Source: Escherichia phage vB-Eco-KMB38
Reading direction: 5' to 3' (one strand)
Sequence record: OR525701.1
DNA: 64,000 bases
Part shown: in pieces, positions 6,565-62,207 of the stretch
Position numbering within the stretch: position 1 is the first letter of the stretch
Layout: each line of letters begins with the position of its first letter
Notes under the pieces: model-generated
The model's database searches: none
Seen by the model: only the letters and a program-made list of their open reading frames with translations
What the model was told of the DNA's origin: nothing
Made by a program: the position numbers and the translations under genes

Positions 6565-6791
6565 TAGTAAGTTTCCTTCCAATAAGTTGTACCGTTTTCA
6601 GTGATTTCACGGAAGATACCGTAGATAGGCATTTCATCACCGAGTTTTTCGTAAACGTAAACCACTTCGGTGTAGCATAAAAATCCGGTCCAGTTTTTCT
6701 GTACAACAACTAAATCAGGATTAAACAGAACATCTTCAAACTCATCGATGTTTGAATCAGTAGTTACGTTTTTAATGATTTGACGTTTCAT
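6564..6791 (-). CDS. hypothetical protein
   Basis: ORF-track 6564..6836; likely start at internal ATG (MKRQII) with AAGAGGAGAA RBS, downstream of promoter at 6820-6848. Confidence 0.5.
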
Positions 6792-6819
6792 AATATTCTC
6801 CTCTTGTTTTGATAGGTCT

Positions 6820-6848
6820 ATAGTATCATAGACCATAGTTGTTGTACA
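6820..6848 (-). promoter_or_regulatory. T4-type early promoter (-35 TGTACA, -10 TACTAT)
   Basis: sigma70-like hexamers with 17 bp spacer on minus strand; -10 embedded in dyad GGTCTAT..ATAGACC. Confidence 0.45.
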
Positions 6849-7373
6849 TCATTTTAGCAAAATAAAATCAACTTGTTCTGCCAATGAACGTCTAAACATT
6901 AATTGACAACTTCCGAGGATGAAATCAGGTGCTTCATAGACCGCGATGTAGTATCCTTTAGCTTTCAAGAGTTCAACATCCACCTGGTCATCAAACCATG
7001 CATAAACCGCGTCAACGCTTTCAAATCCAAAATAGAACCCTTGAGCCCAATCTTCACTCAATTCAAATGTGTGCTCAATTCTATAGTATCTTAAGATATT
7101 TTGTTCAAGGAGTTTGTCTTCATTTACTGTAGGACGATTAGGGACATTATAGTTGTCGCCGTGATGGTAGAAGTTACCTGAGAGTATTCCATGCTTATCA
7201 AGGAACTCCCATGTTTCTTCAGAGTTGTCGGTGCCCGACCAACCGTATGGCGAGCGAGGTTCTTTATTCCAAGAGGTTTCCCAAATTCTGACGGCTTTAC
7301 CGTCTTCGATAGCAATTCCTGGTAATGATTCACGTTGAGTGCAAAAACTACGTTCTACGCGGTAAACTAACAT
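6849..7373 (-). CDS. hypothetical protein
   Basis: 174 aa ORF, ATG start with GAGGAG RBS. Confidence 0.65.
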   Translation of the reverse strand: MLVYRVERSFCTQRESLPGIAIEDGKAVRIWETSWNKEPRSPYGWSGTDNSEETWEFLDKHGILSGNFYHHGDNYNVPNRPTVNEDKLLEQNILRYYRIEHTFELSEDWAQGFYFGFESVDAVYAWFDDQVDVELLKAKGYYIAVYEAPDFILGSCQLMFRRSLAEQVDFILLK

Positions 7374-7398
7374 ATTATTCTCCTCTGGTTGATATGGT

Positions 7399-7427
7399 TA
7401 TAATATCAAAACCAGAGGAGAAGTAAA
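7399..7427 (-). promoter_or_regulatory. T4-type early promoter (-35 GTTTAC, 17 bp, -10 TATTAT)
   Basis: match to T4 early promoter consensus on minus strand upstream of 6849..7373. Confidence 0.55.
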
Positions 7428-7432
7428 CAACT

Positions 7433-8408: not shown

Positions 8409-8903
8409 TTAATTAAGGATATTAACCACAGCACTACGTGGAACTACACTAAAATCACCTGCATGAACAACGTTCAGAAGTTCAACACCGTCTTCAATCC
8501 ATTGGTCAGTTACCCATCCATTTACTGGACCAGCGAATGGGCGTCGAATTGAAACATATTTACACAACAAATCAGTAGGCTCAATAGGCTTAATCAGAGT
8601 ACCGTACATACAAGCGATATCCATATCAATACAGATATCTTTAACGGGTTCTACTTCTTCAATCAACAGTTCAAAGTCGGTGCTTGGAAGGGCGGTGGTA
8701 GAAATTGTACCATATGAATTTTTAATTTCTAAGAATAACCAAGGGCCTTCAACTTGTTTGATGAAGTTAACAATAGTGAAACTATTACCTTGAGTGGCAC
8801 CTAAAATTTCACAAAACTTTTCATAAGCTCGCACTGAAGCACCGTACCAGTTGATTTGTTTTTCATCTTTCAGGATGTAAGTAGCCGTAGTATTGATATT
8901 CAT
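8409..8903 (-). CDS. hypothetical protein, paralog family member
   Basis: 164 aa ORF; C-terminal WVTDQWIEDGVELLNVVHAGDFSVV matches paralogs. Confidence 0.7.
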   Translation of the reverse strand: MNINTTATYILKDEKQINWYGASVRAYEKFCEILGATQGNSFTIVNFIKQVEGPWLFLEIKNSYGTISTTALPSTDFELLIEEVEPVKDICIDMDIACMYGTLIKPIEPTDLLCKYVSIRRPFAGPVNGWVTDQWIEDGVELLNVVHAGDFSVVPRSAVVNILN

Positions 8904-8933
8904 AATGTTTTCCTGTTTGGTTAAGATAGAAAG

Positions 8934-8963
8934 ATTATACTCAAACCATCCTTGGTTGTAAAC
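8934..8963 (-). promoter_or_regulatory. T4-type early promoter (-35 GTTTAC, -10 TATAAT)
   Basis: hexamers with 18 bp spacer AACCAAGGATGGTTTGAG. Confidence 0.5.
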
Positions 8964-11279: not shown

Positions 11280-12026
11280 TTAACCTTTAATCAGTTGGAA
11301 TAATGATACGTTAAGTGGTAAGCCACGTTTCAATTTTAATTTACCAATGAAACCAATCTTTTCAAAACGTTGCAGACCTTGGATAACTTTATCATATGTA
11401 TCGAAAAGCGATTCAGCGTCAGTTAATTTAGTTTTAGTTTTCCAGTCAGAGCCTTTAAGAAGAACGTTGAGTTTAGTAAGTTCATGGCCTTCTGCTTGAT
11501 GTGAGCCATTAATGCGTGCTTTTAAAGCAACAATTCTAAGTTTAGATTCGTTAGATAAAGGTTGATTTTTCATCATGTTCGCCATATGCTTAACACGATT
11601 TTCACGTTTTGCTCGGATTTTTAAAATAGTACCGTAAACCTTTTTAATTTGGGCCCATTTCTTCTCGTCGAGATTAAGTTTCTCTACTTTACGGGCAGAA
11701 GGATTAGCGATACGTCTTGCAATGGCATCACGTTTCTCAATAAGTTCTTCTAATGTTAAATCAGAACGAGCCGTGTTATATTTTTTCTTAACCGGGATAA
11801 CATTACCTTTAATGTAGCCTATATCATTATTAAAACGTTCTAAGGATAATTTCTCACCTTCAACAGAGTTATTAAAAGATTCACCTGAGTAAGCGCAGAC
11901 CTTTTGATCAAGAATGTTTTTAAGGTAATTAAAGTCCAAGTTAAAATCCTTAGAGCGTCTCTTCGCAGAAGCTCTGGTGTGGTCAAGACGACGATTGATT
12001 TTGTTAATTTTATTATTTGATAACAT
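11280..12026 (-). CDS. srd: Srd-like protein (putative anti-sigma/sigma-related factor)
   Basis: 248 aa basic protein at the T4 srd position between dda and modA; name by synteny only. Confidence 0.5.
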   Translation of the reverse strand: MLSNNKINKINRRLDHTRASAKRRSKDFNLDFNYLKNILDQKVCAYSGESFNNSVEGEKLSLERFNNDIGYIKGNVIPVKKKYNTARSDLTLEELIEKRDAIARRIANPSARKVEKLNLDEKKWAQIKKVYGTILKIRAKRENRVKHMANMMKNQPLSNESKLRIVALKARINGSHQAEGHELTKLNVLLKGSDWKTKTKLTDAESLFDTYDKVIQGLQRFEKIGFIGKLKLKRGLPLNVSLFQLIKG

Positions 12027-12178
12027 AATATTTTCCTCTGTCTTACGGACGTTAGGTCATTTAGCTGATAAGCTTATAATATCATGCCCTCAGGTAGTGT
12101 ACACTCTTTTTTCATAAAATGCTTTAATTTTTTATGTGTTATAATGGTTCTGAGTTCCATCCGGTTATTCTAATTCAG

Positions 12179-12787
12179 TCAGTAACTGACAATAGACAGA
12201 TTCCAGATTGTATAACTTCCATCTTGAATAATAGAATCTACACGCAGTGTAGTCCCTATAGGGAGCATAAATTCACATTCGTCGGATATAAGTCTAGCAT
12301 TAGACCGTCTTGTCGCTTCAGGGAAAGCTCCATTGAACTCACAAGATGGCGCAGCCAGAATCATGTTAAGCATATGTTCACGGAAGTTGAAAGCAAATGG
12401 TGCATCTTTGATGCAGAACATATTAAATGTTCCGTAAAAATTATACGAAGCAAAGTTACGTGCTACACTGAACACCGGGCTGAAGCTCATTACTCTATCA
12501 AATTTAATAATACTACCAATGCCTTTATCATCAAGTGTGACCATAGTTTTCTTAGAGATTCCACGATACATTGTCTCAGGAACAGAAGACGACCAATTTC
12601 TACGAACGATTGAACTTAACTCCTGTTGAATACAGTCTGGCTTGTTTTCCATACACTGCCACAGGATGCTTTGTTCATTATCGTTGAATTGACTATCAAT
12701 TTCGTACTGCAATACATCTTGATATTCGGGGTTTTGAGCACGACGAACCATTTCTTCAATTTCACACTCGTTATACGGCATAAACAT
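12179..12787 (-). CDS. modA: ADP-ribosyltransferase ModA
   Basis: 202 aa; paralogous to adjacent ModB-like ORF; conserved YRG(I/V) Arg motif; T4 synteny. Confidence 0.7.
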   Translation of the reverse strand: MFMPYNECEIEEMVRRAQNPEYQDVLQYEIDSQFNDNEQSILWQCMENKPDCIQQELSSIVRRNWSSSVPETMYRGISKKTMVTLDDKGIGSIIKFDRVMSFSPVFSVARNFASYNFYGTFNMFCIKDAPFAFNFREHMLNMILAAPSCEFNGAFPEATRRSNARLISDECEFMLPIGTTLRVDSIIQDGSYTIWNLSIVSY

Positions 12788-12844
12788 TTTGGTTTCTCCT
12801 GTGGTTGATAAAGGTATAGTATCATCATCGGAAGAGTTTGTACA

Positions 12845-13426
12845 CTAAAAATTCAACATTTTCAAATGAATGATTTTGTATAATCGAGATAAAGGGTCAT
12901 ATTCTAAGTCTTCAATTTCCACAATCTCAAATCTAGAGATACCTGAGACCATGTACTCTTGTTCAGATTCAATCATATCTAGGACGTCAACACGCGTTTC
13001 TTCCATAACATGCTTAGGGTTCTTTCCGGCGAGTACAATGTTAATCATGTTTTGGTAGTAATCAAAAATGAATGGAGCATTCCTGAGACTAAGAATAGTG
13101 TACGTCTGATATTCCCATCTCCCAGAGAATTGACGAGCTGTACTGAAATCAGTTGTGAACGATGTTACTCGTCCAGGAGACCAATGGCATCCAACAGAAA
13201 GAAGTGAAAGACGTTCTACTTCTTCTGGAGTTACACCGCGGTAGAGTTCTACTGGTACTGTAGAAGTCATATGCTTACGAACAAGATGGTCTAATTCATA
13301 GTGGAAATCCGGGTCTTCCTTAGAATCGGTGCAAGCCCAGAGAATGTTTTGTTCTTGGCGGGTGAATTTGCTATCAATCAGATTTGTTAGGTATTCACGT
13401 TCTTGAAGTTCAGATTGACATGTCAT
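12845..13426 (-). CDS. modB: ADP-ribosyltransferase ModB
   Basis: 193 aa paralog of ModA (shared ILWxC...VPxxxYRG segments). Confidence 0.7.
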   Translation of the reverse strand: MTCQSELQEREYLTNLIDSKFTRQEQNILWACTDSKEDPDFHYELDHLVRKHMTSTVPVELYRGVTPEEVERLSLLSVGCHWSPGRVTSFTTDFSTARQFSGRWEYQTYTILSLRNAPFIFDYYQNMINIVLAGKNPKHVMEETRVDVLDMIESEQEYMVSGISRFEIVEIEDLEYDPLSRLYKIIHLKMLNF

Positions 13427-13453
13427 GATAGACCTCCATTTAAAGATAAGCCT

Positions 13454-13482
13454 ATCATAACACGAGAGGAGGGAATGTAAAC
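13454..13482 (-). promoter_or_regulatory. T4-type early promoter (-35 GTTTAC, 17 bp, -10 TATGAT)
   Basis: consensus hexamers on minus strand upstream of modB start. Confidence 0.5.
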
Positions 13483-18492: not shown

Positions 18493-18778
18493 CTGTGATT
18501 TCGGTTACGATATCTTTGTTATCGAAATTAGGGTCGCAATACAAAACATAATTGTACTGCATGATACCGCCAGACTTAAGTTGGTCAACAACTTTATTAA
18601 CCATATTAGGACGGTCTCGTTTAGTGATGTTCATGATATCAGAGAAGATTTGTTGTTCAACATCTTCTTGATTTGCCGTCATTGACCACTCACAGAGGTC
18701 TTTATCATAACCTGCCGTAACTGGAGCCGGTGCACATGATACTGCAAGTAAGATTGCTGCCAATGATAACTTTTTCAT
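18485..18778 (-). CDS. sp: periplasmic protein with signal peptide, spackle-like (superinfection exclusion)
   Basis: 97 aa with N-terminal signal peptide MKKLSLAAILLAVSCAPA; T4 sp is 97 aa at this locus. Confidence 0.55.
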   Translation of the reverse strand: MKKLSLAAILLAVSCAPAPVTAGYDKDLCEWSMTANQEDVEQQIFSDIMNITKRDRPNMVNKVVDQLKSGGIMQYNYVLYCDPNFDNKDIVTEITGE

Positions 18779-18841
18779 TTTAACTCCTTAGTTGATTTGA
18801 TAGGACTACTATACTATAGTCCATCTATAATGTAAACAAGT

Positions 18842-19090
18842 TTATTCTTTTTCGCGAATAATAATTACTTGTTGAGGCTGCTGAGCAGATTTCTTTTCGG
18901 CAACGATAGACCAAATTAAAGTTCCAATCCAACCAACCATCGTCCAGTTAAAGAGTAAAGATACAAAGAAGATTGCTGTTGTGCTTTTTGTGCCACGAAT
19001 GAGTGCGATTACCCAAGGCAACATGTAAATGATGATTGAACCAATACCTGCGATTAAAACTGCTACTGAACTAGCTACGAATAATTCCAT
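18842..19090 (-). CDS. small membrane protein (2 TM helices)
   Basis: 82 aa hydrophobic ORF. Confidence 0.55.
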   Translation of the reverse strand: MELFVASSVAVLIAGIGSIIIYMLPWVIALIRGTKSTTAIFFVSLLFNWTMVGWIGTLIWSIVAEKKSAQQPQQVIIIREKE

Positions 19091-19151
19091 GTTAATTTCC
19101 TCTTGATTTGTTATGTTTATAGTATCTTGTTTTAACTTTTGCGTAAACCAA

Positions 19152-19520
19152 TTAATTAAATTTGTTTAAACGTTCAATACACTGGACGTAGTTATTCGCG
19201 ATTTGTTTCTGGGTAGGCTCTTTACCAGTTGTTTCAACATAGCGAATGAATGCGATTTCAGTAGCCTGTAAGCAATGTTCTTTAACGCGTTGTTCTTTTG
19301 ACAACGCTACGGTATCAGAATCACGATACCGTTGAGCATGGGCATCAGCTTGAATCATTCGATTACCTACAGTAACCGGGTCTTCCACTTCAACTTTAGG
19401 TTGGTTATACTGTTTAACATTCGGATTGTAAATCAGTTGGCCAACATTATTAGGGATAAAGCCATGGGCACCACATCCGGTTAATCCAAATACCATTGCT
19501 AAAGCGATTAATTTTTTCAT
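19152..19520 (-). CDS. putative lipoprotein
   Basis: 122 aa; signal peptide with lipobox LTGC. Confidence 0.6.
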   Translation of the reverse strand: MKKLIALAMVFGLTGCGAHGFIPNNVGQLIYNPNVKQYNQPKVEVEDPVTVGNRMIQADAHAQRYRDSDTVALSKEQRVKEHCLQATEIAFIRYVETTGKEPTQKQIANNYVQCIERLNKFN

Positions 19521-19580
19521 TTCAATTTCCTCTGTAGTTGATAGAAAGATAGTAACACAGTATGTGGTGCTTGTAAACAG

Positions 19581-19986: not shown

Positions 19987-20300
19987 ATTTCCTCGCAAAA
20001 CGCCCATTCAGCGTGATAAACTGTAGCGCCTTTAGTATCATTCATTTGAACTACATCTACCGGAGAAATTACTCGATAGAGACGTGGTTCACCTCCATAA
20101 GAGCGTGCTGCTCGTCCTGCATAAATCTTTGCTAAGCCGATATCTTCAGTAAAGAATACACGGTTCAAGTTTTTCTTACGTCCAGTTTCAGACAGAACTC
20201 CTGTTTCCTCAGGAGGACAAAGCATGTTTTCGATGTTAGCTGAACTACTTGAACCGTGATAAAAAATCTTAAATTCTGCTTTACAATCGATGGTTTTCAT
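19983..20300 (-). CDS. hypothetical protein
   Basis: 105 aa ORF. Confidence 0.55.
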   Translation of the reverse strand: MKTIDCKAEFKIFYHGSSSSANIENMLCPPEETGVLSETGRKKNLNRVFFTEDIGLAKIYAGRAARSYGGEPRLYRVISPVDVVQMNDTKGATVYHAEWAFCEEI

Positions 20301-20326
20301 TTTGTTCTCCAGTAGTTGATAGGTCT

Positions 20327-20355
20327 ATAATAACACAACTACTGGAGAAGTAAAC
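20327..20355 (-). promoter_or_regulatory. T4-type early promoter (-35 GTTTAC, 17 bp, -10 TATTAT, then AGACCTATC)
   Basis: consensus hexamers on minus strand upstream of 19983..20300. Confidence 0.55.
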
Positions 20356-20730
20356 TTAAAAACGTAATTTAGATATATCTGCGTTGATTTCGTTTTGGTT
20401 TGCGTCGTATGCAATTAAACGAACCGCTTTAGATGGGTCATTCAATGCATAGAAATGATGGAACATTGCTCGAACGATATCACCATTTACGAGTTCTACC
20501 TGGATAGGAGAACCTTTTTCGAGTTGGAAATGTTCATAAGCTTTGATGGTTCGTAGATAATCAAGTTTTTGATTTCCAGCTCCAACTATTTGTACGATAC
20601 GTTTGCCTGTGTTTTCCATACGAGATACAATAGTTTTAGGAGCAAGAATAACGTAGGTTGCCAGCGGAGAAACTACTTCAACAGTTGTGTTTTCGGTGAT
20701 TGCAGTAAAAATTGCTTGAGACATATTCAT
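20356..20730 (-). CDS. hypothetical protein
   Basis: 124 aa ORF. Confidence 0.6.
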   Translation of the reverse strand: MNMSQAIFTAITENTTVEVVSPLATYVILAPKTIVSRMENTGKRIVQIVGAGNQKLDYLRTIKAYEHFQLEKGSPIQVELVNGDIVRAMFHHFYALNDPSKAVRLIAYDANQNEINADISKLRF

Positions 20731-20795
20731 AATGTTTTCCTCTTGGTTGGTGTAAGTTCATCATACCATGCTTAGAGGAAGATGTAAACCCCGAA

Positions 20796-27480: not shown

Positions 27481-27539
27481 TTTTTTGCATCTCGCGTTAA
27501 TTGATGCGATGGTTTTTTTTGCAGGTCTTACTTAAATTA

Positions 27540-29611: not shown

Positions 29612-29644
29612 GTTGAAGTCCTCATTGGTAAGTAGGAGTATTGT

Positions 29645-29788: not shown

Positions 29789-29792
29789 GCTT

Positions 29793-30428
29793 TCATTGCT
29801 CGCCTCGTAACATGGCACCTAGTGCACCGCCAGGGTGGAACTTAAGGAAATCATTAGAGGTAAATCCACGTTCAGACGAAAGGTTGATAGCAAACGTATC
29901 GATAAGCGCTAACAACAATGTAGTGGACATAGTCGGAGCCAGAGAATTCTCATCAACCTCTACCGCGATGCCGGTGCAGAACGTATAATCAAAAAGAGCT
30001 TCGTATTCTTGTGGAATGTCAGGGTTACAATGTAACAGAATCTGTTTAACCTGAGGACGAATCATACGAAGATGTTTAGCAACACCTATCATTTCTTCAG
30101 TCTTACCAGAACGACTGATGTGGACTAATACATCATTAGGTGCAATAAATCCTGCGTCACCATGAGAATAATGCCCGGTATTCAAATACATGCTAGGAAT
30201 ACCTAGTGAAGCAAAAGTCTCGGAAGCTTTAGTTGCGATATTAGCATTCTTACCAACACCTGTAATAATTACCCGGCTTTCATAATTACTAAGTCCAGGG
30301 CGTCGAAGAGTTTCTAGAATAGCATTATAACGAGCAGGGTTTTGACTAATTACTTTAGCCATAGTGGCAAGAGATGAAGCTTGTTTTACGATTGCGTCAA
30401 TAGCGATAGTAATAGGAGTAGTTTTCAT
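29793..30428 (-). CDS. SIS-domain sugar-phosphate isomerase, arabinose-5-phosphate isomerase (KdsD/GutQ/KpsF)-like, no CBS domains
   Basis: 211 aa; VIITGVGKNANIATK..HGD..ISRSG and LAPTMSTT...FHPGGALG motifs parallel KdsD SIS domain. Confidence 0.75.
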   Translation of the reverse strand: MKTTPITIAIDAIVKQASSLATMAKVISQNPARYNAILETLRRPGLSNYESRVIITGVGKNANIATKASETFASLGIPSMYLNTGHYSHGDAGFIAPNDVLVHISRSGKTEEMIGVAKHLRMIRPQVKQILLHCNPDIPQEYEALFDYTFCTGIAVEVDENSLAPTMSTTLLLALIDTFAINLSSERGFTSNDFLKFHPGGALGAMLRGEQ

Positions 30429-30468
30429 ATTTCTCTCATTTAATTAGTTGGCCGTCCTTGGCATTATA

Positions 30469-33180
30469 TCAAAAATCAAACATATCGAACAGAGATGCTT
30501 TCTTCTCGTAATCGAGTTTCGCTGCTGATGTGAATCCTTCAAGTGGTTTAATAAATGTCTTCTCAAGGAGAACAGTGTAGTCCATCCAATGAAGTACATC
30601 GTCTTTAATTAAATCTGTGATTTCAGTACCAGAAGGCCATGCGATACATTTATCACCGAATGGGTTTCCTTCACGTAAAGGCAGAACATATACTTTTTCA
30701 CCTTCTACAACTTGTGGTGCATCAATATTACCTTTGATAGCTCGGTTATATGTCAGAATTCCACGAATATGGAACGGACATTTAGGACCAGGGAATCCAC
30801 CGACATCATATTTAGCAATGTTATTCGCAGAAGATACCGACGCGATGCTAATATAATTCAATTGACGGAATTCTTTTTCAAACTCTTTAAAATATTCTTG
30901 TAATGATTCTTCACCTTCTTGAAGCATACGACGAATACATTCTTTAAGAGCTTTCTGTACTGCTTTAGGGGTCGAAGATTTCTGAGTCTCTAGACCCATG
31001 ATTTTGAGTTTAGGCTCAGCGTAACGAGTGCCTTCCATATCCCACACGTTTAATGCATAACGTTTCTTACCAGTCCAGAATCCACCAATACCTTTAGAAC
31101 CGAGCGGAGGCCCAGCAATAGCTTCTCGGTCCATGAACATCAAATGTTGCTTATTATTCATGTATTCGCACATTTCACGGAAACCTCTATCAATAGCAGG
31201 TTCCATACGTTCACGAGCGAACTTATCTAAGAAGTCTACCCAATGGTTGGTATCACGGAATTTAGATTCACCAACCTTATCGATAATTTTATCAGCAGAT
31301 ACGTAAATAGAGTCTGTATCACCATAAAGAACGAAAGCTTCACCTTCTGTACCACAAACTTCATTCAGATATTCATTAACTTTACGTTCAATCCACTGTA
31401 AAGCCATTTGCCCGAATGTTGTGATTGCAGTAGCATTACGCAAATCATAATAACGGAACCAAACGTTTCCAAGTGCACCATAAAGTGAGTTGATAAGCAA
31501 TTTACGGTTAATTTGGGCAGTCATACCTGCAACTTCAGTACGTTGAGCTCTAAACAACATTTCATTAAGAGATTTAGCAGACAACTTTTTAATCTTTTCT
31601 TTAATCTCATCACTGAAGTCGAAACGATAATCAACATCTAATGGTTCGTCAACAGAAAGATTAGGATTATGCAATGCCTCTTTAATTATTTCACCATTAC
31701 GTTGAGCTGCAAGCATGTAACCTTTATGTTCTTTACGTTGATTAAAGACCTTAGTGATTTCAGTTGGAACTACACCATCACGGTCTTTATAATACATCAT
31801 GCCGTTAGGAGAGCAACTGTACACATCTGAAGGACGTTCAGCGATTGCGTTAATATAATCATGCAGTGGAGCTACTTTAAACGTTCCTGCTATTGTTTCC
31901 GGGCTAATATTCACTTGGCGAATAATACTTGGATACAGAGATGTAAGGTCGAAACTCATTACATATTTGTATCGATTTGGAATAGGTTCCTTAACAAAAG
32001 CGCCAGGATAAGGTTGAACCGGGTGAGAACGACCTTGTGGAATCACCTTGTTTTGTTCTTTAAGGCTATTAAAAATAATAGCATCCCAAGTTTTAATTGG
32101 ACTGAACACAGATTGAATCTGAATTTTAGCATAATAACCCATGTCCAAACTCAAGTTGATGAACTGACGCTTAGCATCAATTTGCAATACACGATATACG
32201 TCGATAATGTTATAAGAAATATATCGTTGGTGATTGCTTTCACGAAGTTTAGAAATAGGACCGTCGTATTTCAGTTTACCAACGTTCAATTCAAATTCTG
32301 AAATGTAATCCAGAGAATACGACGGTTGGTTCGTGAAAGAGAACTTTTTGTAAAGGTCAATGTAATCAAGAACAGAGATACCGAACAATGTAATGATTTC
32401 ACGAGAACCATACATGTTTTCGATAACTTTAACACGAGTTTTACGATGTGGTGATAAACGTTTCGCAGTAGATTCGCCAAAAATATTCTTGATTCGGTTA
32501 TACACATATGGAATATCAAATGACTCAACGTTCCATCCAGTCAAAATGACAGGAGTTTTCTGTTGCCAGAAGTTGAGATATTCCATCAACAATTCTTTTT
32601 CGTTATCGAACGGCATATAAATGATTTTATCGATAATTTCAGATGGAACTTCATCACCGCCTTGTTCTTGAAGCTTAGCAGCGATTTCAATAGACCATTC
32701 TTCTACATTACCATATGGAGAATTCAATAGATCAAATACGTAGAACCTGTCGTCAATTGAGTCATAATGGGTGATAGCATCAATCGGATGTTTTGCTTGT
32801 GACGGCTCAGGGAACCCATCCGGAGATGTTACTTCGATGTCGAAGTTAGCCACACGAATTTTTGTATGGTCGTATTTGATTTCATAGTTATAAGTGTCAG
32901 ACAAATACGCCAATTTGAAATCGTCCATGCCAAGTGCTTCAAGTCCGATATCTTCCATGCGTTTAATCCATTGGGAGGCATCACGCATATTAGCGAACAA
33001 CTTACGAGTACACGGCTTACCGTAGATATCGAAATATTTCGTAGCCTGACTTTCTGGACAATGAGCAAACAGTGATGGTTTATATTCTACTTCACGAGTA
33101 CGTTCACGGCCATTAGAATCGATGTAACGTTCAAAAATTGAATCACCAATCTGTTCAACCGTTAAGTAAAATTCTTTCAT
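30469..33180 (-). CDS. 43: DNA polymerase (family B, with 3'-5' exonuclease)
   Basis: 903 aa; exo motif FDIEVTS, pol motifs DLTSLYPSII and YGDTDS; sequence matches my recollection of RB69 gp43. Confidence 0.95.
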   Translation of the reverse strand: MKEFYLTVEQIGDSIFERYIDSNGRERTREVEYKPSLFAHCPESQATKYFDIYGKPCTRKLFANMRDASQWIKRMEDIGLEALGMDDFKLAYLSDTYNYEIKYDHTKIRVANFDIEVTSPDGFPEPSQAKHPIDAITHYDSIDDRFYVFDLLNSPYGNVEEWSIEIAAKLQEQGGDEVPSEIIDKIIYMPFDNEKELLMEYLNFWQQKTPVILTGWNVESFDIPYVYNRIKNIFGESTAKRLSPHRKTRVKVIENMYGSREIITLFGISVLDYIDLYKKFSFTNQPSYSLDYISEFELNVGKLKYDGPISKLRESNHQRYISYNIIDVYRVLQIDAKRQFINLSLDMGYYAKIQIQSVFSPIKTWDAIIFNSLKEQNKVIPQGRSHPVQPYPGAFVKEPIPNRYKYVMSFDLTSLYPSIIRQVNISPETIAGTFKVAPLHDYINAIAERPSDVYSCSPNGMMYYKDRDGVVPTEITKVFNQRKEHKGYMLAAQRNGEIIKEALHNPNLSVDEPLDVDYRFDFSDEIKEKIKKLSAKSLNEMLFRAQRTEVAGMTAQINRKLLINSLYGALGNVWFRYYDLRNATAITTFGQMALQWIERKVNEYLNEVCGTEGEAFVLYGDTDSIYVSADKIIDKVGESKFRDTNHWVDFLDKFARERMEPAIDRGFREMCEYMNNKQHLMFMDREAIAGPPLGSKGIGGFWTGKKRYALNVWDMEGTRYAEPKLKIMGLETQKSSTPKAVQKALKECIRRMLQEGEESLQEYFKEFEKEFRQLNYISIASVSSANNIAKYDVGGFPGPKCPFHIRGILTYNRAIKGNIDAPQVVEGEKVYVLPLREGNPFGDKCIAWPSGTEITDLIKDDVLHWMDYTVLLEKTFIKPLEGFTSAAKLDYEKKASLFDMFDF

Positions 33181-40830: not shown

Positions 40831-41371
40831 ATAAAAAATCCAAACTAGGCGAATCGCTAACAACTTCCTTCTTTTCAGCCCCAGGAGCTTTATAAGCGGA
40901 TTCTTCATAATGCGTCATTTTATCGTAGATGTCTTGAATAAACGTTTCATCTACCAACGCTACCATATCATCGTCATGACTGTCGTAGACATTATGAACG
41001 AAGTAACTATATTTCTTTGCAACTTCCTTACGTTCTTTTTTGATACGTTGGACAAAAGCATTAAAACAAGCTCGAGTTATGTATGCATGTGGGTTATTGT
41101 ACTTAGTTTCGTCGAAATTATGAAGTCCCTTAATAGAGGCTTCAATCCCATCTGCAATCATCTCCTGCTTCCAAGACTGGGTATATCCTGAAAAGTTGAA
41201 ACGTTTGGACAGGCCTTCGGCGATAAGCATAATTGCTAAACCGATGGTATCATTCTGACGAATAATTTTGTTTGGGTCTTTATTATTTAAGAGCTCCTTT
41301 TTCCACTCGATTATAGCGGCGAGAAGCTCTTTATTATTCACATAGTTATTTTTAGGTTTTTGTTCAGTCAT
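40814..41371 (-). CDS. 55: late-transcription sigma factor gp55
   Basis: ORF-track start is TTG; re-set to ATG ([17 protein letters not shown]) with AAGAGG RBS, 185 aa; closely parallels T4 gp55. Confidence 0.85.
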
Positions 41372-41443
41372 AAGTACCTCTTGGCTCAATTCATAGGTCT
41401 ATTATATCATAATATTTAGAGACCTATCTTAAAGCACGAGATA

Positions 41444-42332: not shown

Positions 42333-42572
42333 CTATTTTTTAAGCATGAAAAGCAAGTAATTTGTATCGCGTGGAGTAATATCAACACCCATATCAAAGA
42401 TGCCTTTATAGATTGGGTATTTGTTTTCGGTTGTATCGAAGCTGAAACTATTTCCATCACATCTAACAGTAATAGCATCTGTTAAAATGTCATACTCAAT
42501 CCTAACAATTGAATCCCCGATTTTAACGTCGAGGTGTTTTTTGAATTTGATAAAATCTAATTCTTGAGCCAT
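42333..42572 (-). CDS. hypothetical protein
   Basis: 79 aa ORF. Confidence 0.5.
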   Translation of the reverse strand: MAQELDFIKFKKHLDVKIGDSIVRIEYDILTDAITVRCDGNSFSFDTTENKYPIYKGIFDMGVDITPRDTNYLLFMLKK

Positions 42573-42635
42573 GATATTTTCCTCATTTTAAGACGATAGG
42601 AAGACATGTTATTATCTTCCTATCGTTGTACATTA

Positions 42636-49951: not shown

Positions 49952-50895
49952 TATAAAACCTCAATGGCATTTCGTAAACCGTCCGCTTTCGCATTCAGAG
50001 CTTTTAACGATTTAGTTTGTTCTGCAATCTGGGCTTCGACTTCTTTCAGACGAGATTTGAGGTACTCACGTTCTTCAGCCATGATATCAACCTTTTCTGC
50101 TTTAGGTTCTTTAATAGGCTTAAACACATTAGGGTTCTTCAGTTTAATTTTAATTCGAGAACTGAATAACATTGAACCGTTATCTTCGGTTTCGTCGAAC
50201 ATTTCAACAACATCCATAGTCTGTAACATCATACGAAGTTTATAAGACAGCGAACGAACGGTTTTGTTGTGCTTATTAATTTCTTCGGCTTTCATTGTAC
50301 CGAGATTACGTGAGTAATAATAAGGAACCTGGATATCAATTGATAATGATGCGTTACCATTACCTGTTGGTTTGAATACTGCAGTAACCCAATCTTTAAC
50401 ATGAACTTTATTTGTACGTCCATCGCCACCTGTGAATAATTTACGAGAATGTTTAAAAAGCATATTCACTTGGTTATTGAATTCACAAGCAAATTTATCA
50501 GCAAATTTAGTTTCAGGAATGGTAGATAACCAATCAGCTAAATGAGTCTTTTTAACATCATTAACAATAGTGAATTCAACCAAATCGGTTTTAGATGTCA
50601 CAGATTTAATAAAGCTCGGCTTCATAAAGTTTTTAATGTTATCGCGAGCTACAGTAGAAGATAATAAACGAGAACGTTTGAACCATTGAAGCAGTGTCCC
50701 TAATGAATGAGAATACGCATTTTGAGTATCTTTACAGATATGATTTTCTTGGCCTGTGTATGTACCAAAATCGCGAAGAATACCACTTACTACATCTCGG
50801 TGTGGAACATCAAATCCTAATGAACCAGAAGCACGTTGGGCATGAACGTTAGCGATAAGACCTGCAAAGTATTCAATGTAATGTGAACGTGTCAT
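49951..50895 (-). CDS. hypothetical protein with C-terminal coiled coil
   Basis: 314 aa; heptad-rich C-terminus; own early promoter. Confidence 0.65.
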   Translation of the reverse strand: MTRSHYIEYFAGLIANVHAQRASGSLGFDVPHRDVVSGILRDFGTYTGQENHICKDTQNAYSHSLGTLLQWFKRSRLLSSTVARDNIKNFMKPSFIKSVTSKTDLVEFTIVNDVKKTHLADWLSTIPETKFADKFACEFNNQVNMLFKHSRKLFTGGDGRTNKVHVKDWVTAVFKPTGNGNASLSIDIQVPYYYSRNLGTMKAEEINKHNKTVRSLSYKLRMMLQTMDVVEMFDETEDNGSMLFSSRIKIKLKNPNVFKPIKEPKAEKVDIMAEEREYLKSRLKEVEAQIAEQTKSLKALNAKADGLRNAIEVL

Positions 50896-50923
50896 AATAT
50901 TTTCCTCTCGTTAAGATAGATTC

Positions 50924-50953
50924 ATTATACTCCAACCATCCTTGGTTGTAAAC
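50924..50953 (-). promoter_or_regulatory. T4-type early promoter (-35 GTTTAC, -10 TATAAT, spacer AACCAAGGATGGTTGGAG)
   Basis: consensus hexamers; spacer shared with promoters at 8376 and 8934. Confidence 0.5.
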
Positions 50954-51943: not shown

Positions 51944-51972
51944 ATTATACTCCAACCGTCCTTGGTTGTACA
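51944..51972 (-). promoter_or_regulatory. T4-type early promoter (-35 TGTACA, 17 bp, -10 TATAAT)
   Basis: hexamers on minus strand, spacer CCAAGGACGG. Confidence 0.5.
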
Positions 51973-53003: not shown

Positions 53004-53032
53004 ATTATAACCCGTCCTTGGGTAAAGCGTTT
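53004..53032 (-). promoter_or_regulatory. possible MotA-dependent middle promoter (MotA-box-like CGCTTTA, about 13 bp, -10 TATAAT)
   Basis: near-consensus MotA box positioned about 13 bp upstream of TATAAT. Confidence 0.35.
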
Positions 53033-53558
53033 ATGCGTGAACCGACTTTAAACGTTCTTCAAATTTCCGAAGAGTACTAATACGTTCTGCTTTCTGTTTT
53101 GTATAGTTTGCAATACGTTCTGAAGTGAGAGCGTATCGTTCGTTTACTGTTTCTTTCATGAAGTCAGGGATTTCACGAGAAGCTTTAATTTCATCAAACT
53201 TATCGAGTACTGCCTGGTCTTCAGCGATTAAATTTTCGTACATCTCGATATCTTTCTTGATAAACTCGATATCTTCCTGGGTTACTTTGGATAAACGAGA
53301 TGCTTTATCCTTTTTGTACTGCTCGTTAGTTTCACGAGACCAGAATAATGTACGTTTTTTGTTAGTGTTTTTGTAGACTTCCACAATTCCAACCGAATCG
53401 ATGATAACAATCCAATTCCAGCGAGATTTGAAAATCTGACCTCCGTCCACGGTAATCTCGTTACCATAAGCAACGTCATTAAAGAACTTGCTTTGTGCTT
53501 CAGATTTAAATTTACCGTCGTTATAATTTACCAGGTTGAAAATATCTTTAGCGTTCAT
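53031..53558 (-). CDS. hypothetical protein
   Basis: 175 aa ORF. Confidence 0.6.
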   Translation of the reverse strand: MNAKDIFNLVNYNDGKFKSEAQSKFFNDVAYGNEITVDGGQIFKSRWNWIVIIDSVGIVEVYKNTNKKRTLFWSRETNEQYKKDKASRLSKVTQEDIEFIKKDIEMYENLIAEDQAVLDKFDEIKASREIPDFMKETVNERYALTSERIANYTKQKAERISTLRKFEERLKSVHA

Positions 53559-53585
53559 GTTTTACCTCCAGTAGTTGATAGGTCT

Positions 53586-53614
53586 ATAATAACATAATCA
53601 TAGACCTTGTAAAC
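53586..53614 (-). promoter_or_regulatory. T4-type early promoter (-35 GTTTAC, 17 bp, -10 TATTAT, then AGACCTATC)
   Basis: consensus hexamers; -10 bracketed by dyad GGTCTAT/ATAGACC. Confidence 0.55.
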
Positions 53615-54042: not shown

Positions 54043-55044
54043 TTATTTCAGTAAAGTTACTTCAGAGATTTCCTCCCAACCATCTTTATCAGTTGAAATA
54101 AAATCTGCTACATAAAGAGCCGTACGTAATGACACATTGCGAAGACGAGATATGTTAGCCTTCATCCAGGACAATGCTTTATACGTTTCTGCATCCGTCA
54201 GACCACGTTTCTGCATCATGTCAGTAGATAATATTACATCTTCAACTCGAACCATAATCTCTTCATTAGAGTGTACTCCAAGGTCAAGATACACTGAACG
54301 AGATACTAAAGCTTGAAGGTGTGGAGCAAGTTTCGAACCACGTTCTAACTCTTTATCGATATCAACGTTTGTAATGAAAACGATAGTACCTTCAAACTCA
54401 AATTCTTTATCAATACCCTTATCATCAAGATAAGATGATGCAGTGCTCCAGCAAACTTTGCGTTTATCACCAGTATCTAATGCTGCTTTAAGAAGGTTCA
54501 AGATATCCATATCCGAGAATACGTCAACGTCGTCGATTAAGAGAACGCTGTCTGCATCACGGTTGAGCCAAAGTTGTTCGTAAAGGCCAATACCTGAGAT
54601 TTTACCATTAATGCTTTTGTATTTGATGAAACCGTTATCATTAGCATTATTAAGCGCTCTATCCAGAGAATACGTCTTACCAATACCGGCTGCACCTGAA
54701 ATAATGAGTGAACGAATTTTGCCATCGATAATGCCATTCGTCATCATGTTCATTACTTTAAAGCGTTTGTTGATACGAGTTTTCATATCTTCAGTGCTTT
54801 CAACAACTGCAACTGGTGATGTCTCAGCTCCTTCCATTACGATATCTGATTTGAAGACCCATACTCCACGTTCAGAACCATCAATCATAACGAAAATTTT
54901 ACCGTCACCTAAGTGGGAACATTCAGGATTAAGCTTTGCCGGGAACCAGGTCTTTGTGGCAACATAAGAACCGGAGATTTCGTTATTACGATAGATACCT
55001 TTTTTGATTTGAACGTTGAACATTTTATTCTCCAATTTACTCAT
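54043..55044 (-). CDS. P-loop ATPase (Walker A GAAGIGKT, Walker B VLLIDDVD)
   Basis: 333 aa; N-terminal non-ATPase domain of about 100 aa. Confidence 0.65.
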   Translation of the reverse strand: MSKLENKMFNVQIKKGIYRNNEISGSYVATKTWFPAKLNPECSHLGDGKIFVMIDGSERGVWVFKSDIVMEGAETSPVAVVESTEDMKTRINKRFKVMNMMTNGIIDGKIRSLIISGAAGIGKTYSLDRALNNANDNGFIKYKSINGKISGIGLYEQLWLNRDADSVLLIDDVDVFSDMDILNLLKAALDTGDKRKVCWSTASSYLDDKGIDKEFEFEGTIVFITNVDIDKELERGSKLAPHLQALVSRSVYLDLGVHSNEEIMVRVEDVILSTDMMQKRGLTDAETYKALSWMKANISRLRNVSLRTALYVADFISTDKDGWEEISEVTLLK

Positions 55045-55061
55045 TTCGTTTCGATAGGTCT

Positions 55062-55090
55062 ATAATAACATATCCTAAAAGCATGTACAC
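55062..55090 (-). promoter_or_regulatory. T4-type early promoter (-35 GTGTAC, 17 bp, -10 TATTAT, then AGACCTATC)
   Basis: hexamers on minus strand upstream of ATPase gene. Confidence 0.5.
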
Positions 55091-55118
55091 TACTTTTTAA
55101 AAATATTTTGACCCCCTA

Positions 55119-55136
55119 AAGGGCCCGAAGGCCCTT
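55119..55136 (-). terminator. hairpin AAGGGCC-UUCG-GGCCCUU immediately after stop of 55138..56127
   Basis: 7 bp GC-rich stem, UUCG loop; weak U tract. Confidence 0.45.
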
Positions 55137-57149: not shown

Positions 57150-57483
57150 TTAAAGTTTCAACAAAATTCACCAAATCATTCTGACAAGCATCAACCTGAT
57201 TTTCATAAAAGTCTACGTTATCATTTACCGCGTGATAAGCTACATCATTCAAATCTGAATCGGCTTCACGTAAGTCACGGATAAGGTCCATCAATTTATT
57301 AGCTTGTTCACGGGTCATTTTACCATACTCGCTTCAATAAGATTCACTATGCCGTTTACCATGTTATAAGTAAACATTGGATAATTGTATTGTACTACAA
57401 CATAAGCGATAAGCAAAAGTTTCATTTTGTTCTCCATTTGTTTTTGGTAGGACTACTATAACACAGTCCTACCAAGATGTAAA

Positions 57484-57717
57484 CTACCGATTGTGTTTTA
57501 AATGTTGATAAAGTTCTTCAACTTGTTTAGGGTCCAAAACAATTAAGTCATTTTCTTGACGAAGATAAATCCATCCCTTATCCCCAGGACCATTTTTACA
57601 AAACATCACCACCGTATCATCATCTTCAGCGCTTTCAGGTAAAAGTTCAAGTACACCGTCTTCAGATTTTCCAGTATAATCGTAAAGCATAATATCCTCA
57701 CATAATCTCGTTAACAT
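57484..57717 (-). CDS. hypothetical protein
   Basis: 77 aa ORF. Confidence 0.5.
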   Translation of the reverse strand: MLTRLCEDIMLYDYTGKSEDGVLELLPESAEDDDTVVMFCKNGPGDKGWIYLRQENDLIVLDPKQVEELYQHLKHNR

Positions 57718-57916
57718 ACATTTGCAATTCGGTGTGCGTATCAGCCATCTTTTTCATAGCTCTGTTAATGTCGATATCACCGTCTTCACACCCATGGGCA
57801 TTTTCCCAATCAGATACAGCGTTAGCATACTCTTCAATCAAAAACATTAACTTAGAAATTTTTTCTTTACGTGACATAACGTTCTCCTCTAGTAAGTAAG
57901 GTCTACTATAACACAA
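57698..57916 (-). CDS. hypothetical protein
   Basis: 72 aa ORF. Confidence 0.45.
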   Translation of the reverse strand: MCYSRPYLLEENVMSRKEKISKLMFLIEEYANAVSDWENAHGCEDGDIDINRAMKKMADTHTELQMYVNEIM

Positions 57917-57942
57917 CCTGAGGAGAAGTAAACTGTTAAATG

Positions 57943-57975
57943 CAAAAAAGCCCCAACCTTTCGGAAGGGGCTTTG
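57943..57975 (-). terminator. terminator hairpin (GCCCC..GAAA..GGGGC) + U6, copy 1 of a 36-bp direct repeat
   Basis: stem with GNRA-type loop and internal UU/UU, followed by T-run; contains stop codon of 57977..58534. Confidence 0.6.
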
Positions 57976-57976
57976 A

Positions 57977-58534
57977 TTAGTTTTTGTAATATCGTAAAGG
58001 GTTGATATGGAATGAAAGCATTGCGCGTGGAATAGGACGACTCAAAAGACTCTTAAGTTTCCAACCACAGTAAACACGCAGATAAAATGTAATACCACCA
58101 ACCTTAAGATAAGGTATAGCAGCGAATAATCCCCATGCAGACTCGTTCCAAACTAAAAGATATCCATGATGTGCCGGATCAGGAGATCCAGATTTAGTTT
58201 CAGCGTTGCCTTTATAGTGCCATTCTGATGAAGCTTCGCGACCTAAAACATGATACGAAAAATTATATGCTTTGTTGCGCCATAACCAAGCTACGCGTTG
58301 AGCATATTTACCTATAACAGGAATTTTACGTATTTTAGACCAACGTTCAACATGACCACGGTCACCATCGATAGGATTATCGTAAGTCATCATCCAGTCA
58401 AAGCCATAAGGTAGTTTACCTGTTTTTTCACTATGGAATGGAACTACAAATGGTGCTAGAATAATTGCTAAAATCGCTGCGATCCAATCTATAGGAACAA
58501 GAACAACCCAACTTATGTATTTTAAAAATTTCAT
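57977..58534 (-). CDS. membrane-anchored hypothetical protein
   Basis: 185 aa; N-terminal TM helix; flanked by identical terminator repeats. Confidence 0.6.
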   Translation of the reverse strand: MKFLKYISWVVLVPIDWIAAILAIILAPFVVPFHSEKTGKLPYGFDWMMTYDNPIDGDRGHVERWSKIRKIPVIGKYAQRVAWLWRNKAYNFSYHVLGREASSEWHYKGNAETKSGSPDPAHHGYLLVWNESAWGLFAAIPYLKVGGITFYLRVYCGWKLKSLLSRPIPRAMLSFHINPLRYYKN

Positions 58535-61691: not shown

Positions 61692-62150
61692 CTAGATTTT
61701 AATCACTGCTTTAGAAGCTTTTCCTGGTAGTCGTTTACTGTTAATAATAGCCATTCTGCATTGAAGAGTCTTCATTTTGAACGCTGGATTTTCGCGACAA
61801 ACTGTAAGTCCTAACCAAAGATTTCCATCAGTTATTTCTAAACGGCCCGGGCGATATTCGACACCTTCGACAAAATCTTCATCAACATCTGGACGTGCCG
61901 GCATTGATAAAAATTCTGCAACTTCTTTAACATGATTTTTTACTTTACGAAATAATTCAAAAACGTAATTCTCATCTATTTCTCTCTGGATGGCACGATC
62001 TAAGAGATGTTGAGAATACTTGATATGAAAGCCGGGTAGCCCAAGAGACTTTGCAGCATCTTTTATACCGGCATTTATTTTGCGGAACTCCGTTTCAAAG
62101 ATTCGACGGAGTTTATTACGGCGGATAAAAACGTCTGAATTGATAGTCAT
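61692..62150 (-). CDS. regB: RegB site-specific endoribonuclease
   Basis: ORF-track 61692..62174; start re-set to MTINSDVFIRRNKLRR; closely parallels T4 RegB. Confidence 0.8.
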   Translation of the reverse strand: MTINSDVFIRRNKLRRIFETEFRKINAGIKDAAKSLGLPGFHIKYSQHLLDRAIQREIDENYVFELFRKVKNHVKEVAEFLSMPARPDVDEDFVEGVEYRPGRLEITDGNLWLGLTVCRENPAFKMKTLQCRMAIINSKRLPGKASKAVIKI

Positions 62151-62178
62151 TTTGATTTCTCCTCTAGTTGACATGTCT

Positions 62179-62207
62179 ATAGTAACACAACTAGAGGAGA
62201 AGTAAAC
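62179..62207 (-). promoter_or_regulatory. T4-type early promoter (-35 GTTTAC, 17 bp, -10 TACTAT)
   Basis: hexamers upstream of regB. Confidence 0.5.

Follow-up and report, generated by a model that had tools for sequence, protein, structure and literature searches.

Early promoters in the window

The 64,000-nucleotide (nt) stretch of Escherichia phage vB-Eco-KMB38 (OR525701.1), referred to as the window throughout, carries a set of phage early promoters, and the elements of interest here are the sequence that extends their -10 hexamer downstream and the inverted repeats that lie across it. The focal promoter at 53614 reads GTTTAC-aaggtctatgattatgt-TATTAT-agacctatcaactactggaggtaaaacATG on the minus strand. 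The 4-kb stretch surrounding it matches Escherichia phage PTK (Mosigvirus, Straboviridae) at 100% identity and many RB69-like phages at ~97%, and the first 4 kb of the window shows 99.4% identity to PTK and phage AlbertHofmann. Judged by these identities, the window belongs to the genome of a Mosigvirus, an RB69-like phage of the T4 type. Its gene order follows that of the T4 early region, being collinear between rIIA and about tk, with nearly all genes on the minus strand. Thus, what an earlier note on this DNA had described as minus-strand promoters are the early promoters of a T4-type phage.

Promoters are labelled by their first -35 coordinate (53614, 20355, 62207 etc.), and all lie on the minus strand. 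A regular-expression scan followed by curation gave 22 clear early promoters, plus two to three atypical ones. The -35 element is GTTTAC in 16, GTGTAC in three and ATGTAC in three of the 22, the spacer measures 16-18 nt, T occupies -15 in 18/22 and G occupies -14 in 16/22, while T-12, A-11 and T-7 are invariant, in line with T4-type early promoters. All early promoters are located 50-70 nt 5' of minus-strand open reading frames (ORFs) in the correct orientation, and many of these ORFs have homologues among the T4 early genes (cef, motB.1/.2, srd, modA/B, mrh.2, sp, imm, 55.6, nrdC.x). A generic TTGACA/TATAAT scan proved useless as a test, as it returned 45 matches against 48.6 in shuffles of this AT-rich window, i.e. 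no enrichment.

A conserved extension at the predicted start site

The exact 11-mer ATAGACCTATC occurs four times in the window (6811-6821, 20318-20328, 53577-53587 and 55053-55063), each time on the minus strand, where it shares bases with the 3' end of the -10 hexamer, compared to no occurrence in 100 dinucleotide shuffles. A copy with one mismatch is found at 41392-41402 and copies with two mismatches at 18799-18809, 13445-13455 and 62170-62180. The earlier note had listed eight promoters with sequence of this kind. All eight are minus-strand sites resembling T4-type early promoters and located just 5' of a Shine-Dalgarno (SD) sequence and ATG, with the exception of 41392-41427 upstream of gene 55, which has no -35 element; at 57484 and 57933 the likeness is loose, with three mismatches each. 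Counted over the whole window and allowing up to two mismatches, the 11-mer shows no enrichment (16 against 15.9 expected). Conversely, the anchored pattern TANNNTNNNYYTATC gave 17 matches as compared to 4.5 +/- 2.7 in shuffles, a number reached in 0/100 of them, and 11 of the 17 are recognised early promoters. The proposed enrichment over shuffled sequence is therefore borne out for the exact 11-mer and the anchored pattern and not for the relaxed 11-mer, and as ATAGACCTATC is enriched only when anchored to the -10 element, the signal is positional. Two further minus-strand matches to TAnnnT-N3-YYTATC, at 23822-23836 and 58370-58384, fall outside the curated list and may be middle or weak early promoters.

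Alignment of the 22 promoters on the -10 element revealed C at -3 in 14, T at -1 in 20, A at +1 in 18, T at +2 in 16 and C at +3 in 18, corresponding to an information content of 0.90, 1.18, 0.67, 0.67 and 1.36 bit, respectively; for comparison, the invariant T residues at -12 and -7 score 1.48 bit each. Conservation from -3 to +3 (C-Y-T-A-T-C) nearly equals that of the -10 element itself, and the extension belongs to nearly all early promoters in the window rather than to eight. The conserved A, 7 nt past the -10 element, is the predicted start, as at 53579, 20320, 62172 and 7393, a numbering that agrees with the RB69 logo, in which C is favoured at -3 to -1 (Nolan et al. 2006, PMC1524935). 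That the T4 early-promoter consensus extends beyond the sigma-70 elements has been acknowledged (Hinton 2010, PMC2988021), and the CTATCAACTAC leader of the window promoters is also found in T4. From the alignment, the extended consensus is best read as TAnnAT-aga-C-C/T-T-A(+1)-T-C-AAC, and the downstream extension very probably corresponds to the discriminator and the start site within the T4-type early promoter consensus.

The earlier note had raised a different possibility, namely an operator for a phage or host regulator. In this reading, ATAGACCTATC, or an inverted repeat GGTCTAT...ATAGACC around the -10 element, would serve a repressor of phage or host origin as an operator in duplex DNA, for example in early-promoter shut-off. 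T4 early promoters are indeed shut off minutes after infection by a mechanism that is still unexplained (PMC2988021, PMC3014915), which would leave room for such a regulator, as would the presence of the exact 11-mer at four promoters when none is expected. Still, ATAGACCTATC is asymmetric. Since the CYTATC core keeps a fixed distance from the -10 element even in promoters without dyads, it is attributed to a polymerase or start-site element. The conserved extension sits in the loop of the long hairpins described below and is kept with or without a dyad.

Inverted repeats across the -10 element

Complementarity was scored between the 20 nt 5' of each -10 element and the 45 nt 3' of it. An exact complementary run of at least 7 base pairs (bp) was found in 7/22 promoters, compared to 0.88 on average and no more than 4 in 1000 trials with shuffled spacers, and to 4.6% of random genomic positions with the same geometry. 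Five of the 22 promoters carry dyads of 11-14 bp, while runs of at least 10 bp occur at 0.2% of random positions. When the spacer of one promoter was combined with the leader of another, at least 10 bp were obtained in 0.43% of combinations; pairing across promoters is rare, and each long dyad is thus specific to its own promoter. RNA folding of the span from -35 to ATG gave -18 to -24 kcal/mol (z -3.6 to -7.3) for five promoters (62207, 7428, 42633, 20355 and 57484). Significant hairpins are present at 5-8 of the 22 window promoters, with several others marginal. For window and T4 early promoters taken together, a minimum free energy (MFE) of -18 kcal/mol or lower was found in 16/54, in contrast to 40/6000 random 55-mers (binomial p 2.5e-22); in regions that have an SD and ATG but lack an early promoter, the rate is 1.6%. 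T4 by itself shows a similar pattern: among its 35 scanned early promoters, runs of 7 bp or more are present in 12 and runs of 10 bp or more in five, the latter being those 5' of dmd, ipI, ipII and denV, plus one at 57990. A search of the whole window on both strands gave no Rfam family at or above the gathering score.

In the strongest dyads, a pyrimidine-rich spacer (TTCTCC...) is complementary to the SD region of the promoter's own gene (...GGAGAA), with the -10 element and AGACCTATC in the loop. The three GGTCTAT/ATAGACC repeats bracketing the -10 element (53614, 6849 and 41427) are present as the earlier note had described them, with the stem at 53614 extending to 11 bp; they are the weaker examples among the dyads of the window, which are commoner and more varied than listed there. 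Their centre-to-centre distances are ~13, 19 and 27 bp, with loops of ~6, 12 and 19 nt. Such dyad symmetry at three promoters could be taken in favour of an operator. However, this dyad occurs at only 3 of ~24 promoters and the spacing of its arms varies, whereas the other dyads are unrelated in sequence.

Covariation and turnover of the hairpins

A pattern scan of IMG/VR for GTTTACTTCTCC-N11-TAnnnT yielded ~25 genuine T4-like promoters among many chance matches. Among the genuine ones, the variable segment of the spacer is complementary to the leader, with the pairs TCTAGTTG/CAACTAGA, TGTAGATG/CATCTACA, AGTAGTTG/CAACTACT, TCTGGTT/AACCAGA, TCATG/CATGA and TGTAG/CTACA; the chance matches in unrelated contigs showed no SD/ATG and no complementarity. 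A covariation alignment (A1) comprised 17 TTCTCC-class promoters from the window, T4 and IMG/VR contigs. Its structure has 24 cells changed on both sides as compared to 10.5 +/- 2.5 in shuffles, and a covariation score of 0.257 as compared to 0.106, each of the two values being reached in 0/500 shuffles, a control that is supportive and not a probability (see below). Slid registers score 0.02-0.13. At pair 16-59 of the alignment, AU, GC, UA and GU are all seen.

Two individual loci show how the hairpins change. In the hairpin 5' of gene 55, one base pair of the stem reads G-C in the window, whereas T4 has G.U and other T-evens have A-U. The gene 55 (late sigma factor) hairpin is conserved across T-even and Mosigvirus lineages (loci L190-L201), and one of these loci (L191) carries an apparent recombinant hairpin with an A.C mismatch. 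At the orthologous site of the 53614 promoter, three lineages have three different hairpins: AGGTCTATGAT/ATTATAGACCT in the window, (CT)GTTCCTC.../...GAGGAAC(AG) in T4-like phages and TCTCCAGTAG/CTACTGGAGG in a third group, with G.U-preserving and helix-extending changes within the lineages. Turnover of the sequence with retention of the hairpin is the signature of selection on structure.

These series bear on the operator as well. Arms that vary and covary, at variable spacing, argue against a protein of fixed geometry and for a folded strand, and a G.U intermediate in the gene 55 stem points in the same direction. As a candidate, the duplex-DNA operator of a dimeric regulator was rejected, no conserved half-site at fixed spacing being found. 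A duplex-DNA operator is thereby rendered very unlikely, and the corresponding suggestion of the earlier note is not upheld.

Alternatively, the hairpins could have no function and represent by-products of cassette recombination or gene conversion, combined with quasi-palindrome mutation in an AT-rich region. Identical blocks of 18-29 nt are common to distant promoters, the longest (29 nt) being shared by 53614 and 20355, and appear to reflect exchange or common descent of promoter cassettes. At 20355 the orthologous genes carry replaced cassettes, and no informative covariation series was obtained there. Quite different promoter cassettes precede the same small gene (19983-20300 in the window; loci L006-L026), and at some of these loci a terminator hairpin and a different early promoter take the place of the window's cassette, which reads as direct evidence of cassette replacement at promoter boundaries. 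The recombinant-looking gene 55 hairpin fits the same picture, and exchange mediated by PeSLs, elements that combine an early promoter with a stem-loop, is documented (PMC2839356, PMC4122927). Recombination explains shared sequence; it does not explain the complementarity of the arms or their ~45-fold excess (16/54 compared to 40/6000). Three hairpins in three lineages at one orthologous promoter, the compensatory series, and turnover with persistence argue for selection on structure instead, so that hairpins without function are considered fairly unlikely.

The CCAAGGAYGG stem-loop

A second structured motif had been noted as a CCAAGGA(T/C)GG spacer shared by several promoters. This observation was confirmed: exact CCAAGGAYGG occurs six times in the window, always on the minus strand and four times in early-promoter spacers (Table 1). 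The two C and two G residues form closing pairs and AAGGAY an invariant hexaloop, while the flanks covary (CAT/ATG, CAA/TTG, CTT/AGG, AC/GT, TATA/TATA and AG/CT, with CCAC/GTGG in T4). Counterparts in T4 are found at AF158101 ~2445, 49880 and 50960 (L002/L003). Across 13 sequences, 92% of cells are paired compared to 61% in shuffles (0/500 as high), and one stem pair is seen in all four Watson-Crick types; chance matches to the 10-mer in unrelated contigs have unpaired flanks. As the motif is found in early spacers, in probable MotA-type middle promoters and once after a -10 element, it behaves as a separate module. The AAGGAY hairpin could be protein-binding, making it a candidate site for a phage RNA- or single-stranded DNA-binding factor.

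Geometry and proposed mechanism

The 5' arm of the hairpins lies inside the promoter spacer or the -10 element, upstream of the predicted +1. RNA started at the promoter itself would therefore be without this arm, and the hairpin can form only in upstream read-through RNA or in single-stranded DNA. The alternative "5' RNA structural element" of the earlier note is thus right with regard to a folded strand and wrong with regard to the transcript, as the element would be missing from the promoter's own RNA. In the MFE structures of 62207, 20355, 7428, 57933 and 20789, pairing includes the four SD bases in full, and at 13482 it includes the AUG. Pairing of the SD was not observed in the MFE structures of 53614, 57484, 42633, 6849 and 18837. 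Taking window and T4 together, 19/40 structured promoters have three or more of their four SD bases paired.

Both DNA and RNA could in principle fold in this manner. A DNA-level role would have hairpins or cruciforms in single-stranded or supercoiled DNA modulate promoter opening, replication or recombination; Watson-Crick covariation is the same for DNA and RNA, and PeSL stem-loops block sequencing polymerases on single-stranded DNA and are proposed recombination targets (PMC2839356). On the other hand, G.U is tolerated in the sense orientation, and the sense fold is more stable than the antisense fold in 22/28 structured promoters compared to 62% of random windows (p 0.01). Short AT-rich stems with large loops disfavour cruciform extrusion, and the frequent presence of the SD or AUG in the 3' arm makes obvious sense only at the level of RNA. 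A role at the level of DNA is thus regarded as distinctly unlikely, and RNA is more likely to be the relevant molecule.

The hairpins might also be ordinary intrinsic terminators of upstream units that overlap the next promoter. RB49/phi1 PeSL stem-loops are described as terminators or attenuators, one of which lowered lacZ expression to the same extent as rrnB T1 (PMC2839356), and canonical terminator hairpins with a T run are located just 5' of 57933, 55090, 20789 and 14951. The hairpins that span the -10 element differ from these. None of them is followed by a U tract, A-rich leaders follow their 3' arms, none scored as an intrinsic terminator, none was called in a terminator scan of 49-63 kb, and their stems are AT-rich with loops of 6-19 nt. 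Termination as their ordinary function is accordingly judged unlikely.

In the early regions of T4, it is the rule that early transcripts run on into the genes downstream (PMC2988021), and such RNA is where the hairpins could act. We infer the following course of events. Host sigma-70 RNA polymerase would use these early promoters right after infection. The 5' arm is encoded in the spacer, and the 3' arm either around the predicted start site or in the leader as far as the SD; the spacer of a sigma-70 promoter is largely free to vary in sequence. Transcription from the own promoter would start between the arms and give an mRNA with an open leader, whereas read-through RNA from an upstream early promoter would hold both arms and fold. 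In the TTCTCC...GGAGAA class (62207, 20355, 7428, 57933 and 20789) this fold would bury the ribosome-binding site, and at 13482 the AUG, so that the gene would be translated mainly from transcripts of its own promoter. Untranslated read-through RNA would be exposed to Rho-dependent polarity and decay, and the hairpin would come to resemble an attenuator. For the SD-burying class, hiding of the ribosome-binding site in a long transcript, by analogy with T4 gene e, is the best-supported mechanism. In the SD-free class (57484, 42633, 53614, 6849, 18837 and 41427) the hairpin lies 5' of the SD, and a function as attenuator, insulation or 3'-end stability element for upstream transcripts is more likely.

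Several points weigh against this interpretation. About half of the promoters show no significant structure, and the hairpin is hence not an obligatory part of the promoter. The members of alignment A1 were picked for an SD and a TTCTCC start and are partly related by descent, hence the restricted meaning of its shuffle control. The asymmetry between sense and antisense folds is modest (p 0.03 and 0.17 at stricter thresholds) and confounded by a background strand bias, so that a DNA-level role, though unlikely, keeps some weight. The start site is predicted from sigma-70 geometry and the published RB69 logo. Hairpins that end 5' of the SD cannot block translation directly, and the two hairpin classes may not share one function. 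Finally, templated (quasi-palindrome) mutation can yield perfect inverted repeats without selection. Weighing these points, we assign a probability of roughly 60% to the statement as a whole, i.e. an extended promoter consensus together with stem-loops in spacer and leader that act in read-through RNA; for the action of the hairpins in read-through RNA by itself, the odds are about even or marginally better.

Individual promoters

The features of the window are collected in Table 1. At 62207, where the spacer is complementary to the SD of its own gene, the fold reaches -23.8 kcal/mol (z -6.1), and 0/200 shuffles were equally stable. The fold at 57933 (-14.0 kcal/mol, z -0.85) is not significant alone. 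The region upstream of gene 55, without a -35 element, has a MotA-box-like TGCTTTA and two overlapping -10-like hexamers, TATTAT/TATAAT, and is probably a middle promoter. The pairing of -10 region and start codon at the modB-like gene (13426-13459) is also found at T4 promoter 13186 (AF158101 ~13130-13165, -18.0 kcal/mol); according to the predicted fold, read-through RNA would hide the AUG of this modB-like ADP-ribosyltransferase gene. The promoters at 19578 and 19148 serve as internal negative examples.

Table 1 Early promoters, hairpins and related features of the window (positions in window coordinates)
Feature	Position	Strand	Details
Focal early promoter (53614)	53558..53614	minus	-35 GTTTAC 53614-53609; -10 TATTAT 53591-53586; predicted start A 53579; ATG 53558
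53614 hairpin	53607-53597 with 53590-53580	minus	11 bp AGGUCUAUGAU/AUUAUAGACCU; -14.1 kcal/mol, z -2.65
62207 early promoter	62150..62207	minus	spacer complementary to own SD; -10 62184-62179 in loop
62207 hairpin	62201-62188 with 62170-62157	minus	TTCTCCTCTAGTTG with CAACTAGAGGAGAA, exact 14 bp; predicted inner helix to 62185, from 62176
20355 early promoter	20300..20355	minus	14-bp dyad TTCTCCAGTAGTTG/CAACTACTGGAGAA buries SD; -10 TATTAT 20332-20327; ATAGACCTATC within hairpin loop; -21.7 kcal/mol, z -5.5
7428 early promoter	7373..7428	minus	13-bp dyad TTCTCCTCTGGTT/AACCAGAGGAGAA buries SD; -10 7405-7400; -23.9 kcal/mol, z -7.3
42633 early promoter	42572..42633	minus	-35 ATGTAC; 14-bp hairpin ACGAUAGGAAGAUA/UGUCUUCCUAUCGU, arms 42626-42613 with 42606-42593, tight around -10; SD outside; -22.0 kcal/mol, z -6.4
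57484 early promoter	57425..57484	minus	11-12-bp hairpin UUGGUAGGACU/AGUCCUACCAA around -10 57460-57455; SD outside; -18.4 kcal/mol, z -3.6
57933 early promoter	57877..57933	minus	spacer TTCTCCTC pairs GAGGAGAA at SD, 8 bp + inner helix; terminator-like hairpin with T run 5'
6849 early promoter, 5' of cef homologue	6791..6849	minus	-35 ATGTAC; GGTCTAT(G)/(T)ATAGACC, arms 6834-6828 with 6821-6815; very short loop overlaps -10 TACTAT (6825-6820); -9.5 kcal/mol
Gene 55 upstream region	41371..41435	minus	dyad ATAGGTCT/AGACCTAT; -13.3 kcal/mol
55090 early promoter	55023..55090	minus	-35 GTGTAC; exact ATAGACCTATC, no significant dyad (z +1.08); terminator-like hairpin 5'
18837 early promoter, 5' of spackle homologue	18778..18837	minus	GGACUA/UAGUCC hairpin around -10; -11.5 kcal/mol, z -1.8
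20789 early promoter	20730..20789	minus	spacer TTCCTCT pairs AGAGGAA at SD, 7 bp; canonical terminator hairpin directly 5'; z -2.35
13482 early promoter, modB-like gene	13426..13482	minus	-10 region UAUGAUAGGCU pairs start-codon-containing GGUCUAUCAUG; -13.1 kcal/mol, z -2.4
50953 early promoter	50895..50953	minus	spacer-internal stem-loop AACC-AAGGAU-GGUU, CCAAGGAYGG class
8963 early promoter	8903..8963	minus	CCAAGGATGG class; conserved CTATC start region
Two early promoters (modA-like, srd homologues)	12026..12845	minus	-35 at 12845 and 12104; TTATC start site; no strong dyad
Two early promoters	19090..19578	minus	-35 at 19578 and 19148; no dyad, z +0.84 and +0.33
CCAAGGAYGG copies	8963, 8406, 50953, 51973; 53029; 30461	minus	first four in early-promoter spacers; 53029 probable middle promoter; 30461 just past TATAAT
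CCAAGGAYGG stem-loops	8940-8957, 8383-8400, 50930-50947, 51950-51967, 53010-53027, 30450-30465	minus	
Terminator-like hairpins	~57935-57975, 55092-55135, 20791-20815, 14953-14985	minus	T runs

The terminator-like hairpins with T runs directly 5' of the early promoters 57933, 55090, 20789 and 14951 are canonical and GC-rich. An upstream terminator is found in 0/6 promoters with a strong hairpin, and a strong hairpin in 0/4 promoters with a terminator, numbers that are too small to mean anything. About half of the 22 promoters carry neither an embedded hairpin nor an upstream terminator. At 62207, 20355 and 7428 a TAA is located 0-5 nt 5' of the -35 element, with no terminator-like hairpin between TAA and promoter; this TAA is taken as the putative stop codon of the upstream ORF. 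Elsewhere in the window, 2520-3620 and 26400-30800 hold homologues (by the annotation of MZ501047, a close relative) of hydroxymethylcytosine (hmC) arabinosyltransferase and of enzymes of uridine diphosphate (UDP)-arabinose biosynthesis, which fit the arabinosyl-hmC DNA modification of RB69-like phages.

Implications

The extended consensus and the hairpins add detail to the anatomy of a class of promoters that includes the strongest known for sigma-70 in nature, with a spacer that would double as an RNA hairpin arm. With these motifs, early promoters and cassette boundaries can be assigned confidently in the many Mosigvirus genomes that are poorly annotated. If read-through RNA is silenced as proposed, a simple cis rule would determine which transcript of a dense early operon gets translated, which is of relevance to the distinction between immediate-early and delayed-early genes, to the effects of Rho in T4 and to synthetic phage cassette design. 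A bolder generalisation would regard T-even/RB69-type early promoters as systematic "promoter-in-hairpin" insulators, in which the spacer is selected to pair with its own leader, SD or AUG and each early ORF is translated essentially only from transcripts of its own promoter. This generalisation is possible yet doubtful. If true, it would tie early protein synthesis to early-promoter activity, leave read-through RNA silent and prone to Rho polarity and decay, and explain why stem-loops that are not terminators act as attenuators.

Comparison with known systems

The promoters of the window resemble the early promoters of T4 and RB69 in their GTTTAC -35 element, 17-18 nt spacer, TG(T), TAnnAT and A-rich upstream sequence (PMC1524935, PMC2988021), as well as in their position just 5' of the SD and ATG of early genes, and the C-rich -3 to -1 segment of RB69 matches AGA-CC-T-A in the window. 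They differ in the strength of -1 T, +1 A, +2 T, +3 C and AAC(U)AC, which is not spelled out in these two papers.

The second known system are the PeSLs of RB49 and phi1, in which an early promoter is combined with a stem-loop, mostly between the boxes or overlapping the -10 element, and ends in SD and ATG (Arbiol et al. 2010, PMC2839356). Attenuation of read-through and the shuffling of cassettes are the roles proposed for PeSLs in that study, and one stem-loop lowered downstream lacZ expression. AT-rich "PeSL-like" stems of variable size are mentioned there for the internal-protein loci of T-even phages (Repoila et al. 1994, cited in PMC2839356), and in a later study T4/PST stems are drawn just 5' of the promoter (Comeau et al. 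2014, PMC4122927). The window agrees with these descriptions in combining a strong early promoter with a stable stem-loop between, overlapping or just beside the -35/-10 boxes, in the SD and ATG of a small gene at the end of the cassette, in many copies per genome and in relatives whose orthologous genes carry different, exchanged cassettes. The four upstream terminators correspond to the terminator-then-promoter order drawn for T4/PST, and the window contains both kinds, i.e. stems that span the -10 element and stems just 5' of the promoter. Conversely, RB49/phi1 stems are described as typically G(n)...C(n) beside a TTGACA/TATAAT promoter, whereas the prominent stems of the window span spacer, -10 element and start site, often to the SD. 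Mosigviruses lie outside the analysis of the PeSL papers, and pairing with the own SD is not mentioned in the text examined.

The third is the hairpin that hides the ribosome-binding site in a long transcript and is relieved by an internal promoter, as known from the T4 genes e, soc, 49 and I-TevI (McPheeters et al. 1986 and others, PMC3014915). In the predicted folds of the window as in those genes, SD or AUG are paired in the transcript initiated upstream, and a predicted start between the arms would give an mRNA without the 5' arm. In the gene e type, the internal promoter is late and the effect is temporal, the early RNA being untranslated; in the window, the internal promoter is early and both transcripts are simultaneous, so that by analogy the arrangement would tie translation to the proximal promoter. 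Systematic pairing of the spacer with SD or AUG and the AAGGAY hairpin were not found described in the literature examined, in which older T4 papers are represented by secondary citations. In summary, these comparisons suggest that the finding is a Mosigvirus case of known kinds, bringing together the extended early consensus, PeSL cassettes and hairpins of the gene e type.

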